A DNA stretch of 64,000 nt. It comes from a virus. The DNA lies in the UHGV virus genome UHGV-1384413. One strand, given 5' to 3'. A model generated the notes under the pieces. That model made no database searches. It saw only the letters and a program-made list of their open reading frames with translations, and was not told the origin of the DNA. Both the position numbers and the translations under genes were made by a program. Of this stretch, positions 1 through 44,631 are shown piece after piece (position 1 is the first letter of the stretch; every line of letters begins with the position of its first letter).

Positions 1-380
1 ATTGCAAACTCTAACTGATTCTTAGCAGGAATGCAAGCCGGAGAATCATCCACCCATATGTCAGGGTAGATATCAAACTGTGCTAGGTAGGCTGCCTTCT
101 GCACACCGCCTGTGTAGAACACACCTACGTCCAACTCCTTGCGCCAATACTCGATGTCCACGTTGTCTTGAGTGATGAATCGGGAAGTCACAAGGTATAC
201 TGTCCACCCTTCCTTTTTCAAGTCCTTAATCAGGCGGGAGAAGATGAAAGGACTCGCATTAAATGTTCCATCAAAGTCAATGGCAATGATGTGTGTGCCG
301 TGGCGAGTCTCATATGGGTTGCTCGTGGTGAGATTGCTGTAGTTAAAAGGGACTTCTTCCCCGCAGTAGCTGTAGTCCAT
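1..380 (-). CDS. HAD-superfamily phosphatase (nucleotidase-like), partial; continues beyond window start
   Basis: Minus-strand reading frame open from ATG at about 378-380 to position 1; N-terminal IAIDFDGTF matches HAD motif I (DxDGT); GGAG upstream of start. Confidence 0.55.
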   Translation of the reverse strand, partial: MDYSYCGEEVPFNYSNLTTSNPYETRHGTHIIAIDFDGTFNASPFIFSRLIKDLKKEGWTVYLVTSRFITQDNVDIEYWRKELDVGVFYTGGVQKAAYLAQFDIYPDIWVDDSPACIPAKNQLEFA

Positions 381-382
381 AT

Positions 383-658
383 TCACACCTTCTCGTTGAT
401 AAATTTACGGGCGGTTTGGTGAGTTGTTTCTGCTGTCTTCAGAATGATATTAATTTTATCGTCAAGATCATTCATCTCAGCAGTTAATTCAGGGATCTCT
501 CCGGCATGCATGGTGAAATCATACATAGACATACCCAGGATCTCATTGATTCGGCGGTTGCATTCTGCAGCACGCTGATTCATTTTCCAAGCTAACACCA
601 GAGCCTCTTGCGTAGCCTCCAGCGCAAAGTCTAATACGTCAGCTTCTTCTTTCGTCAT
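383..658 (-). CDS. hypothetical protein (91 aa)
   Basis: ORF in tightly packed minus-strand operon; no recognised motif. Confidence 0.5.
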   Translation of the reverse strand: MTKEEADVLDFALEATQEALVLAWKMNQRAAECNRRINEILGMSMYDFTMHAGEIPELTAEMNDLDDKINIILKTAETTHQTARKFINEKV

Positions 659-14571: not shown

Positions 14572-14906
14572 GTTTGTGGAGAAATATAGTTAACTACGTG
14601 TGCGGTAATCCAAATCCTGAAGAGAAGGATGTTGTGATTCACGATTTTACTAAAAGATCTCGTGAAAAAGACCTCCTGCTAACAAAGGTGATCGATAAAG
14701 ACCCTATAGGGGACTGGGCAGGGTTTGCGTTTACATCTGACAAATACACCTTTAACAAAGGTGACTACCTTGTTGTGGATTTTAACGAAGACATCGAGGG
14801 TGCTGAACCTTACTATCAGACCCTTATCGTTGCAGAGTGTGTTGAGCTCTCTGCAAACATGCATAGTTTGATTCTTTTTGAGCTTGACTCTGAAGACCTT
14901 GAGTAG
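14568..14906 (+). CDS. hypothetical protein (112 aa)
   Basis: ORF with 4-nt overlap to helicase gene. Confidence 0.5.
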   Translation: MSLWRNIVNYVCGNPNPEEKDVVIHDFTKRSREKDLLLTKVIDKDPIGDWAGFAFTSDKYTFNKGDYLVVDFNEDIEGAEPYYQTLIVAECVELSANMHSLILFELDSEDLE

Positions 14907-39579: not shown

Positions 39580-39595
39580 GTTATACTTATTCCAC

Positions 39596-39746: not shown

Positions 39747-40019
39747 ATGTCAAGCTGGATTAATCAAGAAGTCGAATCACGTTTTAATGCTATCTGGGAT
39801 CTCGTAGAAAAAGAGGACGGAACATCAAGCCCCTACCTCAACAATTTGGAATTCCATTTTGTGGAAGCGATGAACGCAGAACATGATCACGAAGGTGGCG
39901 CGGATGAGTTCGCTAAAGGTTATGGCTTTAACAATGCCAACGAAATGATCGAGTCGGTTGTACTCCAAGCCGAGGAAGATTATCAATTAAAAACGCTTGA
40001 ATTCTGCCGCCGCAAGTAA
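39747..40019 (+). CDS. hypothetical protein (90 aa)
   Basis: ORF with AGAGAGGA RBS. Confidence 0.5.
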   Translation: MSSWINQEVESRFNAIWDLVEKEDGTSSPYLNNLEFHFVEAMNAEHDHEGGADEFAKGYGFNNANEMIESVVLQAEEDYQLKTLEFCRRK

Positions 40020-40079
40020 TAAGATAATGACAAGGGCCGAAAGGCCCACTAATCAGAACCGCACAAAGAGGAAAACATC

Positions 40080-40343
40080 ATGAAACGTCTTGATCAGCTC
40101 AAATTAGTTCAATATATGGCTTATCGTGTTCTTGAAGTACAGAAAGGCAGCAAAAAAGAAGTTTGCGAGAAAGCGTACAAGATCTTTACTCGCAAAAAAG
40201 ACGATTGGATGTTACGCCAGACTAAAAAGGCTGACATCTTGGGGTACCTGGAAGAAGAGATCCGGCTTGAAGAACAAGAAGAGATCCGCCGTAGTGAGGC
40301 AGATTATCAGGCAGCTTGGGAAAACTGGATGAGCAACAAATAA
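40080..40343 (+). CDS. hypothetical protein (87 aa)
   Basis: ORF with AAGAGGA RBS. Confidence 0.5.
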   Translation: MKRLDQLKLVQYMAYRVLEVQKGSKKEVCEKAYKIFTRKKDDWMLRQTKKADILGYLEEEIRLEEQEEIRRSEADYQAAWENWMSNK

Positions 40344-40406
40344 TACAACAAGTTACATGGTCAGGGGCAATAAAGCCCCTTGATCACACAAAAATTATGC
40401 TATCCT

Positions 40407-40435
40407 TGTTGACAGAGATCGGCAGTTTTGCTATA
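40407..40435 (+). promoter_or_regulatory. sigma70-type promoter
   Basis: TTGACA, 17-bp spacer, TATATT; approximate coordinates. Confidence 0.55.
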
Positions 40436-40485
40436 TTCTTTTTGAAGGGCAGTTGTAAGAAAATTAACTAAGAGGTAAAAACACC

Positions 40486-40905
40486 ATGAACATTAAATCT
40501 GATAATCCGGCATATAGCTTTGATAACGCTTTTTGTCACGGTCCGGCGGCGAAAGGATTCGAAATCGATGGTAAACTAATTATTGTCAATGTTGACGGGG
40601 AAGAGGTTGCAGTATATCCGGTGGCAGACGTTAAAAGCCGTCTACAATGCCGCATCGATGTTACCGCCTACCAGCTTGATCCGGTCCGGGTAGTTGCCCT
40701 GGTCCTGGAAGAAGAAATTAAAGCAATGCACCACAGCAACAAGTTTATTGGTGACGCTCAAGATAATATGCAGGTATGCCGCTATAAAGTTAATGAAGTG
40801 CTTAAAGAGTACGGCTATAAGGATTTAATGATCAAGCGTGATGAAAAATTCCGCTACCGTAACGACCTGGCAAATCGGATTTTTGAAATATACGAATCAT
40901 TATAA
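40486..40905 (+). CDS. hypothetical protein (139 aa); last gene of plus-strand block
   Basis: ORF with AGAGGTAA RBS; followed by strong terminator. Confidence 0.55.
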   Translation: MNIKSDNPAYSFDNAFCHGPAAKGFEIDGKLIIVNVDGEEVAVYPVADVKSRLQCRIDVTAYQLDPVRVVALVLEEEIKAMHHSNKFIGDAQDNMQVCRYKVNEVLKEYGYKDLMIKRDEKFRYRNDLANRIFEIYESL

Positions 40906-40923
40906 TTTCTTAACTGAATTATC

Positions 40924-40950
40924 AAGGGGCTTAAAGGCCCCTTTCTTTTT
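40924..40950 (+). terminator. intrinsic terminator closing the plus-strand block
   Basis: AAGGGGC-ttaaag-GCCCCTT hairpin plus TCTTTTT; approximate coordinates. Confidence 0.6.
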
Positions 40951-41539
40951 GTCTGCTCTTCTCCTACCATAAACGGCCCTACCTGGCAAGTGGAATAATT
41001 GACTAGCCATCAATCCCACACACTGTATAAATATACATGGAAAATAACTATTGCATAATTTTTCATTGTGTGGTAGCAAGGCCATTTTTACCCGTTTTCT
41101 CTCCCAAAATTGCACGTAATGCCGCTATTGCACAAAATTTAACCTGATGCACATCTTCAACATCTTGTCAATAACTAAAAATCTTTATAAGTCATACACT
41201 TACACAACCATAAAGCCGTGTTCTACGTGAAAAATCGAGTATAACTATAGCCGCCAGATCTCAGAATTTACGTACGTTCACCATTCTATAGCCTGCAAAG
41301 TATTTATTCCAACCACAGAATAACGGAATAGTCAATACCTGCATAAAATAATTATTCGTGTAAACTGCATAACATAAATCAGCTCAGGTGTCAACATTTT
41401 TCGTAAGCAGTTCGAAATTGTCACGATAAGTTATTATACACAAAGAAATCTTTAGTCGTCTAATGGTTACTATACATTACTAATCTGACTGGAATCATTA
41501 GATGACTAAGAGAAAGATAAGAAATAATTAATAATGTAA

Positions 41540-41850
41540 TTGTTTTACCTGTAACAATAAGGCAACTATGCAAACGAATGGCATGGCGCGACGGAGTCGC
41601 GACATAATATAAAAGCAGTAACCATCACCCCCGTGATAGTTTTTCTGCAATCTATTACTCAGATCATAGTTGCCTTGTATTTAGTTAATCATGACATAAC
41701 AAGCAAGGCAACTATAGATCTTCTAATAGTTGCCCTGCTTTTATATTATGTCATAGAAACGCCCGAAGGGGTGACCTAGTCACCTGGCATAGCCAGCGAA
41801 AGATTATTATCTTGTTAATTGTTTTCATGCAAACGAATGTCATGGCTTAT
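41540..41850. repeat. iteron / inverted-repeat cluster (candidate origin or regulatory hub)
   Basis: 9-mer GGCAACTAT in alternating orientation near 41560, 41667, 41707, 41726; 18-bp perfect inverted repeat GACATAATATAAAAGCAG near 41601 and 41735; flanking direct repeats ATGCAAACGAATG(G/T)CATGGC near 41568 and 41826; small palindromes GCGACggaGTCGC, GGTGACctaGTCACC. Confidence 0.6.
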
Positions 41851-42596
41851 CATCTATGCGTGAACTATCCAGGCGTAAACAGTCTATGCGGGAACAATCT
41901 ATACGGGAACAGTGAGGCATGCAATAGTAACAACTGTTATTGTATCCGGTGTGTTGAGTATGCCCGGTGTGTCACTATTATGTCACATTATGTCAGACAA
42001 GTTTTTCTCCTCTTTGTCAAGTGCTGCATGAAAAATTTACAAACTGGTATGGTAGCATTTTTGCGGCCCTGTTTACATTCAGAAATGTATGTATAATCCT
42101 TGGTGTGTGGGCGTTTAGACGTCTGGACGGTCAGAAGTCCGCAGGTCAATATCTAATCTATTGGTTGCTAACTATATCCCACACAAATAGTAAGAAATAT
42201 AATTGTTATGTGCGTAAACAGTAACCCATGTTATCAATCCCTGTATGTATCGCCAGTGGTGCGCATAATGGGTATTATGTTAAATTGCCCGTAATGATAA
42301 CTATTCTCACAATGATAGGTATTCTCATTCATCCCCACAAGATAGATTGCAAATGTTGTGCCACTGTGTGAACGGCCTGGTCTATTAATTTGCCTCACTG
42401 CCTCGATATTTGAGAATTATTATAAAAATGAGAAGTATTCCCATTCCGTCCGCCTGGCAGCACTCCTGTAGGACAAGCACAAAATCGGGGCATAACTGAC
42501 CTGTTCAGATATTTCTGGCTGACTCTTCAGGTCTGTGTGGGAAAAGCCAACCTCTCCGGCGGCGGGGTAGGGGTCAATTAAAAAATTTATGCGGTG

Positions 42597-42652
42597 TATG
42601 AAACCCTCTTCAGGCAAGGTGTGTATTATGGTATGAAACCCTCTTCAGGCAA
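42597..42652. repeat. two perfect 21-bp direct repeats
   Basis: TATGAAACCCTCTTCAGGCAA twice, 35 bp apart; related CTCTTCAGG and CGGCGGGGTAGGGGT motifs recur nearby; approximate coordinates. Confidence 0.55.
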
Positions 42653-43411
42653 TGATATTTGTGGGTGTGATATTTGCTGGAAAGCCAGATATGACGGGAC
42701 TCCCGGCGGGGCAGGGGTAGTACAGACAGGGAAAATGTGGGGATGTAGTTGGGGAAATTGATCAGACAGGTAGAGTATGGAATATGTTATGAATATGTTA
42801 AATATGGAGGGTGAATATCTGTAGGATTTGTGTGTAAAATCAAAGACTTAAGTGGTGTTGTGGTATTTTCTATAAATAATTCAAGTTTAATAGGTAATAT
42901 TTGTCTCTATCCACTTTGTGTGGTAAACAGATTTAGATGAAATTGGTTTACAAGTGTATACATAATATACAAATTAAAGATACAAGAAACCCCCCTCCCC
43001 CTTCGGCTACCATTCACCTTTTCCTCTGACTGGTACTTAAACACTTATTCAGACTCTTCAGGTTATCACCCATATACTATATGGCAGTGACTGGTGTCCT
43101 CCGGCCCCTCTTTCGTCACCCGTCCGCTTCGCCAAGCTAATGCCATAGCCAAATGTTCGGTTGTTCACCCTGTTCACTCAGGTGTATCTCCATACCCCTT
43201 CAAACCGAAGAGAACAGAAAACCCGAATTACTCGGTAAAAGAAAAGAGAAGAACTTAATTTTATCAAGATAGGCAAGAATGTCAAGGGATGACTGCTCAC
43301 TAAACAAGCAAACAGTCATGTGTGGTAGGTAAGTGATTGTAGTGGTGGAAAATTTAGTTGAAAGATGTGTTATAGTGCTCCCAGCACTTTAGCCGGGCAG
43401 CTAATTGTGTG

Positions 43412-43627
43412 TCAGTCCAGAGGTTCATCCTCCACTTCACTGAAATCAATGTTCATGGTCTCTTCCCAACCATCGATCTCAGCACAAGAGTGAAGTTCTT
43501 TAGGGTTTACTCCCAAAGCCTCAGCAACAGAGTCTATATTTAACACCTCTGGCAGGTATGATTCATCAAATTCAAGGTAAATCAGGCCACGAGTGTTGTC
43601 AGCCCCACCAAATATTTCTATTTTCAT
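43412..43627 (-). CDS. hypothetical acidic protein (71 aa)
   Basis: ORF with GAGGAG RBS; last gene of minus-strand block. Confidence 0.5.
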   Translation of the reverse strand: MKIEIFGGADNTRGLIYLEFDESYLPEVLNIDSVAEALGVNPKELHSCAEIDGWEETMNIDFSEVEDEPLD

Positions 43628-43746
43628 GAAATCTCCTCTGGAAATGAGAGTGTGAACAGGGTTATACGTTCCAATATGATGGAATTATGCACGTTTGCCT
43701 CTTCAGGCCATGCTTTAGCATGATAAACTTATGTGGGCTCGGTGCT

Positions 43747-43959
43747 TCATAGTCTCCCACCTCTGAACTCTTCGTGCTCAGGCATAATAGAGAACCAGAT
43801 ATCTACGATGTCTTCCCACGTTAGGTCATCAGCCTCAGGATCTACCTGGAGCGAAGATGGAGAATCTTCAGAATCGAAGTTTTCCTCTTTCACTGGCTCA
43901 GCCAAGGGACATATGGTCACTCCTTTGGATGTCTCTTCAGATGCATGTGTGTTGATCAT
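43747..43959 (-). CDS. hypothetical acidic protein (70 aa)
   Basis: Minus ORF preferred over overlapping plus ORF on composition and operon direction. Confidence 0.4.
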   Translation of the reverse strand: MINTHASEETSKGVTICPLAEPVKEENFDSEDSPSSLQVDPEADDLTWEDIVDIWFSIMPEHEEFRGGRL

Positions 43960-44265
43960 GTTCCACCCGTGAGTATTCCGGCAACAGCTGCTATGGACGT
44001 GATGATCATCAGGATCACCACTAAAACCTCTGACAATGTTTTCATTGTGTATTCCATATTATCCAAACAATGTGTGGATATTATCACAGGAGCGGTAATG
44101 TGTCAACAGAAGCGCCGCGAGGGTTTGGTTAAAATCCGAGCGTATGGTGATTTGGGTCAAAACGGACGTGCGTTCTCGCTACGCTCGAAATAGAGAGTTG
44201 TTTACAGGCCGTCCTTAAACGCTCTGTAATAAGATTATCCATCTAAGGTATGCAATCGTGCACCA

Positions 44266-44295
44266 GATAAAGAAAAGGACGCCACAGAGCGTCCT
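44266..44295 (-). terminator. intrinsic terminator (minus strand)
   Basis: GGACGC-cacaga-GCGTCC hairpin followed on the minus strand by a T-run; approximate coordinates. Confidence 0.45.
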
Positions 44296-44319
44296 AGGTG
44301 CCTTAAATTTGATATTTTG

Positions 44320-44631
44320 CTATACCCATGAGGGCTTGTCCAGGTTGGAGTAACTGAAAGGGGTCAAAAGGTGACTGTCAAAATCTTTCAAACTGTCCAG
44401 ATCTTTTTCCTCGTCCTGACACCATCTGTGTCTACATTTATTGTTGTAGTGCATGGAATGCATAGCGTTCTGCAACTTAATAGGCACAAGTGATTCAGGA
44501 GTAGATAGAATTGTTGGGTATGCCAGGACTATCTCAAACAATGGAAACACATCGAAACTGAAGTCTATTTCTGCTGAGGTTGCTGGCATATAGGAGTATT
44601 TAGCTGTCGTTGTAGACATAATCCACCTCAC
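44320..44631 (-). CDS. hypothetical protein (103 aa)
   Basis: ORF, 4-nt overlap with upstream gene. Confidence 0.5.
   Translation of the reverse strand: MRWIMSTTTAKYSYMPATSAEIDFSFDVFPLFEIVLAYPTILSTPESLVPIKLQNAMHSMHYNNKCRHRWCQDEEKDLDSLKDFDSHLLTPFSYSNLDKPSWV

Follow-up and report, generated by a model that had tools for sequence, protein, structure and literature searches.

A conserved, potentially hairpin-forming element beside the terminal repeat in the gene-free gap of a Vequintavirus genome

The gene-free gap and its repeats

The DNA considered here (the window) is a stretch of 64,000 nucleotides from the UHGV virus genome UHGV-1384413, and the subject is a short non-coding element at about position 41,600 of it, dense in inverted repeats and lying next to what homology identifies as the direct terminal repeat (DTR) of the phage. 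Over the 2.5 kb around the element the window is 92-94% identical to more than 100 records of Vequintavirus (rV5-like) phages, and by this resemblance it is itself a Vequintavirus, a myovirus. The open reading frame (ORF) list leaves a gene-free gap of about 2.5 kb (40906-43411) between two convergent gene blocks, and all parts of the element, its flanking repeats, and the DTR fall within it. To the left are small plus-strand genes, the last of which ends at 40905; to the right is a minus-strand block ending at 43412. The gene nearest to the element is the one ending at 40905, about 635 bp away, and encodes a hypothetical protein.

The gap is equally empty in the annotations of the relatives navn, rV5_ev168, V5, FV3, and phita32, and in the genome paper on rV5 it is shown as a “non-coding” box (PMC3606486). 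The rV5 authors ascribed the change in GC skew found there to the switch in transcription direction; they also expected bidirectional terminators at this junction, which they did not find (PMC3606486). In the composition profile of the window the cumulative GC skew likewise has its maximum at the gap, a terminus-like or transcription effect as in that paper. A strong intrinsic terminator (AAGGGGCTTAAAGGCCCCTT, then TCTTTTTGTC) follows the last plus-strand gene at 40924-40943, and the HdK5 and Schickermooser records have annotated terminators at the equivalent position.

Several kinds of repeat are superimposed in the element. The 9-mer GGCAACTAT occurs four times in alternating orientation, at 41561 (+), 41666 (-), 41707 (+), and 41726 (-), and has no further exact copy in the 64 kb, where about 0.5 would be expected on both strands; the third and fourth copies are spaced by 10 bp (AGATCTTCTA, with AGATCT inside). 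An 18-bp inverted repeat, GACATAATATAAAAGCAG / CTGCTTTTATATTATGTC, at 41601-41618 and 41735-41752, is 100% complementary, with 116 nt between its arms. A 20-bp direct repeat, ATGCAAACGAATG[G/T]CATGGC, begins at 41568 and again at 41827 (two matches, vs. 0.02 expected), and there are small palindromes at 41587-41601 (CGCGAC-GGA-GTCGCG) and 41770-41784 (GGTGAC-CTA-GTCACC). All of these had been pointed out in an earlier note on this DNA, and all are present as it described them. Its further statements, that the region is non-coding and that the symmetry is not random, also hold: the gap is without genes here and in annotated relatives, and when all 64 kb were scanned for spaced inverted repeats, the two longest both fell within the element. 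The note had let its case depend on whether the repeats are conserved in related phages, which they are. It had missed a four-unit array of 15-bp repeats (41852-41912), a run of TGTCA repeats (41970-41995), and the terminal repeat, which starts 136 bp to the right of the region it described (41540-41860).

Predicted structure

The region has the potential to form a single, very stable structure: when 41596-41757 was folded, with RNA parameters on both strands and with DNA parameters, one dominant nested structure was predicted each time (z = -11.9 and -11.0 for the RNA folds, -10.9 for the DNA fold). The two arms of the inverted repeat (41601-41618 and 41735-41752) form its 18-bp closing stem. 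Enclosed by this stem, first, is a short hairpin, AACCATCAC-CCCC-GTGATAGTT, at 41620-41641, found by a terminator scan as well as in the folds. With an A-run on one side and a T-run on the other it looks like a bidirectional terminator, although the scan flags the minus-strand site (41641-41620) and the plus-strand reading has a weaker stem. Second is a long imperfect hairpin at 41647-41734, with an apical loop at about 41678-41703, whose arms carry the 9-mers: copies 2 (41666-41674), 3 (41707-41715), and 4 (41726-41734), together with a degenerate fifth copy (41647-41657). Copy 2 is predicted to pair with copy 3, and copy 4 with the degenerate copy. Copy 1 (41561-41569, plus strand), which shows no change in any of 11 genomes, FV3 among them, is outside the closing stem, with copy 2 as an alternative pairing partner.

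The earlier note took the alternating 9-mers for iterons. According to the folds they are instead arms of nested hairpins, with a core at 41601-41752; successive copies face opposite ways and base-pair into stems, and the iteron reading was dropped. Three mutually exclusive pairings are possible among the four 9-mers over 41561-41752 (1:2, 2:3, and 3:4). The 3:4 hairpin is followed by CTGCTTTTATATT, an attenuator-like layout, though no gene lies downstream on that strand. A search of Rfam 15 with 40000-44500 gave no matches at E ≤ 1, and ARAGORN found no tRNA or tmRNA in the window.

Around this core are the two copies of the 20-bp direct repeat. The first (DR1, ATGCAAACGAATGGCATGGC, 41568-41587, plus strand) precedes the small GC palindrome at 41587-41601, which abuts the left arm of the stem; the second (DR2, ATGCAAACGAATGTCATGGC, 41827-41846, plus strand) is separated from the right arm by a spacer (41753-41826). 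Across 20 genomes 5% of sites vary over 41561-41600, and the same proportion in DR2, which is near-invariant in the 11 aligned genomes, again including FV3. In the spacer 68% of sites vary and there are large indels; the palindrome at 41770-41784 is an optional GC hairpin (GGTGACCTAGTCACC) that some genomes have and others lack. The direct repeats had been described as flanking the whole, and they do, but they are more than a frame: they are invariant sites, and they persist in phage FV3, which lacks the element (see below). Beyond DR2 come a plus-strand tandem array of units of about 15 bp containing G[TG][GA]AAC (41852-41912; 4.0 copies of period 15 by Tandem Repeats Finder), differing in sequence and copy number between genomes, and then short plus-strand (A/T)(T/G)TGTCA repeats, also of variable copy number (41970-41995; period 10, 2.5 copies by the same program), which run up to the DTR boundary.

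Conservation within Vequintavirus

In an alignment of 11 genomes the stretch from 41561 to 41755 is almost invariant, while its flanks vary, with many indels and changes of copy number in the spacer and the arrays. A six-genome profile gives a conservation of 0.96-1.00 for the element (41561-41760), against a mean of 0.92 for the whole gap and 0.61-0.67 for the arrays (41861-41960). Within the element the variation that does occur avoids the predicted pairs: among 20 Vequintavirus genomes, 9 of 122 paired sites are variable, as against 15 of 40 unpaired ones (Fisher p = 2e-5), and both arms of the outer stem are without any variation. Indels inside the structure are confined to the apical loop or its edges (33 bp after 41696, and single-nucleotide gaps at 41665 and 41716). 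The 33-bp insertion (TAAACTCAGGCATAGCCTTCGTCTCGAGGATGT), found in V5, phita32, and LL12, is at 41696/41697, within the loop, where it leaves the pairing undisturbed.

An ORF of 48 amino acids (41633-41779, VIVFLQSITQIIVALYLV...IDLLIVALLLYYVI) does exist in the element and would give a small hydrophobic protein, similar in kind to type I toxins; the insertion in V5 and phita32 keeps it in frame. However, it begins with GTG and has no Shine-Dalgarno sequence, and about 7 of 8 substitutions in it are non-synonymous (by manual codon reading in the 11-genome alignment). In HdK5, Gotham, isim, and ECP2309 it has a different C-terminus or a shortened one, it is absent from the corresponding elements of A73, Schickermooser, and KPP-1 (see below), and its hydrophobic IVAL repeats are a by-product of translating ATAGTTGCC. 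That the element is there for the sake of such a protein is extremely improbable.

The element is present once per genome in about 118 of 120 phage records, and was absent from 5,426 E. coli genomes. In metagenomes both arms were found together only on three contigs, of about 137-138 kb, and a scan of IMG/VR gave only two additional loci; single-arm matches in metagenomes and bacterial genomes were at about the level expected by chance for an 18-mer (about 17 in 596 Gb). A host-derived or mobile element was considered and rejected on these grounds, with no E. coli match and single-arm matches at chance level. About 18 GenBank records labeled “Campylobacter phage” (MG0656xx, some of them UNVERIFIED, with C. 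jejuni as host) are some 92-94% identical to E. coli Vequintavirus here; they are probably mislabeled, or contaminant assemblies.

Position beside the terminal repeat

By homology, the window has a 459-bp DTR at 41996-42454, and fixed ends of the virion DNA are predicted there. In the HdK5 record the first 459 bp are the same as the last 459 bp, and the ends of the record map to window positions 42454 and 41996; the Gotham record annotates a repeat_region at 1..459; and Korf et al. reported a terminal redundancy of 458 bp (PMC6563267). The HdK5, Gotham, ECP2309, and bov11CS3 records all begin with the same nucleotide (...CCGTCCGCC|), equivalent to window position 42454, and many independent GenBank records begin or end a few hundred bp from the locus. 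The starts of the bov records were discounted as independent evidence for the terminus: the original report called these genomes permuted (PMC8407724), and the start may have been copied from a reference. The two boundaries of the repeat read ...ATGTCA|GACAAGTT and ...CCGTCCGCC|TGGCAGC, in surroundings that are conserved among relatives. From the right arm of the element to the first boundary, at 41996, is 243 bp, mostly the fast-evolving short tandem repeats.

Some other features of the DTR may be noted. As a dispersed motif ATTATGTCA has no window-wide enrichment, and clusters at the DTR boundary and in the repeat arms. Inside the DTR, at 42293-42327 and 42427-42443, are three copies of AATGA[TG]A[AG]NTATTC[TC]CA, at about which place one record annotates a repeat_region; similar motifs (AATGATAATTATTCTCATTC / AATGAGAATAATT) occur within the Schickermooser and KPP-1 DTRs, so that this may be a conserved site within the terminal repeat. 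In some records, ON286975.1 (I29) and MK962749.1 (CM1), the gap/DTR query matches in two places, which points either to a doubled assembly of the DTR or junction or to a record that runs across a concatemer junction.

The element in other genera

Three further genera have a perfect closing stem in this position: of 16 bp in Septuagintavirus (A73), 21 bp in Mydovirus (KPP-1), and 15 bp in Phapecoctavirus (Schickermooser), compared to 18 bp in Vequintavirus. The arms are homologous (GCGACA...; GCGAGC in Schickermooser), with 3-6 substitutions, as well as indels, between lineages; since the stem is perfect in each lineage, every one of these changes is mirrored in the partner arm. The complementarity of the four stems was checked directly, lineage by lineage. 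Taken from the sequences, this is genuine covariation between genera, and selection is for pairing.

What the stems enclose is less uniform. In the Septuagintavirus phages A73 and W70 the diverged homologous stem (GACACTATAAAACGAG / CTCGTTTTATAGTGTC), has the same GGCGCGAC motif before it and a small ATCGGTGAT...ATCGAT hairpin inside it; the counterpart of the short hairpin in A73 is ATCGGTGATAACCGAT, with no adjoining T-run. These phages have a direct repeat of their own (TTGCCAGAGTATGG...), once before the element, in the same position as DR1, and twice downstream, and their element too is followed by an array with a period of 15 bp (ACA[A]GTTGG in A73). In Schickermooser and nieznany (Phapecoctavirus, of a different subfamily) the 15-bp stem encloses AACCATCGGTGATGGTT and further palindromes; AACCATCGGTGATGGTT is the counterpart of the short hairpin in Schickermooser, and here the arrangement between an A-run and a T-run is kept. 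The stem of KPP-1 surrounds several hairpins. The GCGAC before the arm is common to A73 and KPP-1, and partly kept in Schickermooser (GCGAG). The 9-mer GGCAACTAT was absent from the three other genera examined, and its hairpin is found in Vequintavirus only among the four; it is the closed hairpin structure that is kept.

The position is kept as well. The DTR of Schickermooser was checked, and is 329 bp long, 928 bp past the homologue of the last gene before the gap in the window; the element is about 200 bp outside it. For KPP-1 a 514-bp DTR in a convergent gap has been published, classed as T7-type by PhageTerm (PMC9862379), and its element lies about 310 bp outside that repeat. Flanking-gene homology, tried as a means of orienting KPP-1, gave zero matches. 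Its DTR can be aligned with that of the window only in reverse (score 42.5, vs. 10.5 forward and 16.2 ± 4.6 for shuffles), which puts the element to the same side of the repeat in both phages. As far as the compared sequences go, the four genera, which belong to two subfamilies, have a closed-stem element in a fixed position and always to one and the same side of the DTR.

A possible role at the concatemer junction

Among the functions that the earlier note had listed, that of a packaging or terminus signal gains from the 459-bp DTR that adjoins the element. A partition site and a master operator are unsupported, because there is no conserved promoter, the element is single-copy, and the nearest gene is some 635 bp distant. 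The reading favored here, from position, structure, covariation, and the parallel with T7, and with somewhat less than even confidence, is that the element is a structure-forming cis element of the concatemer junction, acting in duplication of the DTR or in packaging. It would probably act at the level of DNA, and as DNA rather than RNA structure in the cell. In T7-type concatemers there is one copy of the repeat per junction, so that duplication is needed, and a hairpin intermediate containing the repeat has been reported (PMC4281155). By the same scheme, replication here would give concatemers with a single DTR copy between genomes, which would have to be duplicated as these are excised. The inverted repeat just outside the DTR might extrude as a hairpin or cruciform and serve as an entry, nicking, or self-priming site for terminase-linked processing, which would regenerate the second DTR copy and start packaging. 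Proteins may bind to the invariant 20-bp repeats and to the short arrays. A more specific proposal can be made: that in these host-polymerase-dependent myoviruses a three-branch DNA hairpin is the self-priming or nicking site for DTR duplication or, equally, that the element specifies a structured RNA of the genome end with a role outside packaging, e.g., as a decoy for host defenses. It is offered as a rather unlikely one.

Several points weigh against a role in end processing. The DTR of this phage is placed by homology alone, and one PhageTerm report describes Vequintavirus genomes as circularly permuted (PMC8407724), while another suggests headful packaging (PMC13211470). The comparison of paired and unpaired sites could not tell whether it is pairing or a set of repeated protein sites that is conserved, and the genomes in it, 20 in all, are related to one another; the mirrored changes between genera are equally to be expected of an RNA stem. 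In T7 the repeat is a single imperfect hairpin with a 3-nt loop, where here a perfect 18-bp stem closes a three-branch structure of about 150 nt; and the role of the T7 hairpin has itself only been modeled, the function proposed here being drawn from it by analogy. Finally, in FV3 exactly 259 bp are missing (41568-41826), comprising one copy of the direct repeat and everything between the copies. If this deletion is real the element may be dispensable, and not strictly essential. FV3 is a published isolate, and presumed viable. Where direct repeats flank a strong palindrome, a deletion from one to the other is a classic product of slippage, and this one could have arisen in the phage or during sequencing, cloning, or assembly. 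With the FV3 junction as the query, only two records, both of FV3, matched in one piece; the others, about 118 of some 120, carry the element.

The same difference could be read the other way round, with the element as a selfish or neutral insertion, like a miniature inverted-repeat transposable element, that has terminal inverted repeats and a 20-bp target duplication and was never acquired by FV3. The presence/absence difference is indeed bounded exactly by the 20-bp direct repeat, and inverted repeats are present. However, these do not abut the direct repeats (the gaps are 13 and 74 nt), and only one genome of about 119 is without the element, which is otherwise single-copy and was not found elsewhere in the window, in E. 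coli, or in other contexts. Further, the element predates the split of the four genera and has not changed its place. The idea of a target-site duplication was rejected: the direct repeat is itself invariant, it is still there in FV3, and A73 has a diverged version of it both before the element and downstream. An inserted element is very unlikely.

Besides a place in end processing, an origin of replication has to be considered. Palindromic origins (herpesvirus oriL and oriS) and plasmid single-strand initiation (ssi) sites offer comparable cases; hairpins would expose sites for an initiator, primase, or helicase, the neighboring AT-rich DNA would melt, and initiation would take place near the end of the genome. 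The element is dense in inverted sites, very stable as a structure, single-copy, and highly conserved, and directly to its left, at 41350-41550, the GC content falls to 27-31%, a feature not confined to origins. The phage has a primase-helicase of the T7 type and a polymerase of family A, with no mapped origin (PMC3606486). Against this, the 9-mers run +,-,+,-, where iterons would be expected in at least three copies of the same orientation; DnaA boxes are not enriched (7 matches to TTWTNCACA in the window vs. 8.4 expected, one of them at 41434); there is no adjacent initiator gene; the gap is where cumulative GC skew is highest, a terminus-like pattern or an effect of transcription; and FV3 does without the element. 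End processing is the more direct reading of its fixed place beside the DTR, shared by four genera. An origin, or single-strand initiation site, is thus unlikely, though it deserves to be kept in mind.

The covariation that argues for pairing fits an RNA stem equally well, and the element might instead act through transcription, as a structured non-coding RNA of about 150-190 nt or as a bidirectional terminator or attenuator guarding the genome end from transcription. The RNA folds are strong (z of -11 to -12), there are terminator-like hairpins with T-runs on both strands, and the short hairpin between its A-run and T-run has a counterpart in three genera, although the T-run-flanked arrangement is kept in Schickermooser and not in A73. 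The alternative 9-mer pairings, with CTGCTTTTATATT after the 3:4 hairpin, would suit an attenuator, and bidirectional terminators are what the rV5 authors had expected here and not found (PMC3606486). On the other hand, Rfam has no match at the threshold used, the strong terminator at 40924-40943 already follows the last gene, and there is no downstream gene to regulate. Paired sites have changed in few places, without any consistent leaning toward G-U. Bacterial small RNAs do not usually have perfect stems as long as 15-21 bp, which RNase III would cleave. The sole promoter-like site aimed at the element, on the minus strand inside DR2 (41833->41806), was rejected as a promoter, since its -10 box varies between genomes. 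A function in RNA or termination is unlikely, to about the same degree as an origin.

Other features right of the terminal repeat

The part of the gap beyond the DTR has features of its own. The motif CTCTTCAGG occurs eight times in the window, where 0.56 would be expected: five copies, all on the same strand, lie beyond the DTR (at 42523, 42606, 42641, 43054, and 43699), and others are at 14616, 57405, and 59840. It is also found in the equivalent gaps of A73 (record L018, at about 5200) and KPP-1 (record L014, at about 2100). A perfect 22-bp direct repeat, GTATGAAACCCTCTTCAGGCAA, at 42596-42617 and 42631-42652, has CTCTTCAGG in each copy, at a spacing of 35 bp; it is about 140 bp past the right DTR boundary. 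Two G-tracts (CGGCGGGG[TC]AGGGGT) and one C-tract (CCCCCCTCCCCC) are at 42560-42574, 42704-42718, and 42988-43002, and similar C-tracts are present in A73 (L018, about 5075) and KPP-1 (L014, about 1870).

The best sigma-70-like promoter of the gap (minus strand, TTGACA-16-TAAAAT with a TG motif, 43285->43258) and a small hairpin with a T-run (43235-43223) are closely followed downstream by another block of very high conservation, at 42961-43260, which reaches 0.96-1.00 in six genomes. As a structured RNA the block was rejected, with a fold z of only -1.0 and no Rfam match.

Significance

Both the non-coding box and the DTR have been published before; the element appears to be undescribed in the literature searched, in which no paper was found that ties these phage groups to an inverted repeat, palindrome, or cruciform, and no transcriptome data for them. 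The rV5-like and phAPEC8-like phages are among the most often isolated phages of E. coli, and might be used in therapy, yet since 2013 their 2.5-kb non-coding box has gone without an assigned role. The genome ends are now placed, by homology, inside it. For packaging, the element is a small, concrete target in the study of DTR duplication, a step that has only been modeled even in T7; should the self-priming or nicking hairpin prove true, it would give a physical and mutable handle on this step of T7-type packaging. In phage engineering the region is one to preserve or to avoid, and the element and DTR together form a landmark by which genome records could be consistently oriented and started.

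Comparison with known systems

Bidirectional intrinsic terminators resemble the element in part: the hairpin at 41620-41641 is bordered by an A-run and a T-run, and a T-rich run comes after the 3:4 hairpin. Here, however, the hairpins are set within a larger conserved structure with a perfect 18-bp stem, about 700 bp past the terminator of the last gene, and the inner hairpin of A73 has no adjoining T-run.

Iteron origins, such as lambda ori and plasmid oriV, also have several exact copies of a short motif in non-coding sequence with AT-rich DNA adjoining. Their iterons are in the same orientation, though, and an initiator is usually encoded nearby; the 9-mers here alternate, form hairpin stems, and have no initiator gene next to them. 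The motif, moreover, is not kept in the three other genera, whereas the closed hairpin is.

Herpesviruses have palindromic origins (oriL and oriS), pac1 and pac2 signals beside the terminal “a” sequence, and a terminase of the phage type. The likeness is in the long palindromes with inverted protein sites, which are prone to deletion, and in packaging signals beside terminal repeats. The sequences and proteins are unrelated, however; herpesvirus origins are away from the termini, and origin activity here is only putative.

The closest resemblance is to T7. Its right terminal repeat starts at nt 39,778 of the T7 sequence, and an imperfect inverted repeat with 19-nt arms is centered at about nt 39,588 (669-709 in the record used here, L017, in which the terminal repeat is from 879); between the two are arrays of short repeats of the CCTAAAG type. 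This junction, its inverted repeat, and the SRR/SRL arrays were reportedly described by Dunn and Studier in 1983 and by Chung, Nardone and Hinkle in 1990; the primary papers on the hairpin intermediate are reportedly those of Chung and Hinkle and of Chung, Nardone and Hinkle. There is zero sequence similarity between the two systems, and the center of the inverted repeat is about 190 bp away from the terminal repeat in T7, compared with about 320 bp here. T7 links processing to its own RNA polymerase and to the phiOR promoter, while for rV5-like phages only host-type sigma-70 promoters have been reported (PMC3606486). What they share is a plan: both have a short, exact, direct terminal repeat, with a potentially hairpin-forming inverted repeat on the unique side and at most a few hundred bp outside it; both have the order inverted repeat, short-repeat arrays, terminal repeat; and in both the repeat needs to be duplicated when concatemers are cut. 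The element is thus best classed with the junction-proximal hairpin signals of short-terminal-repeat phages.

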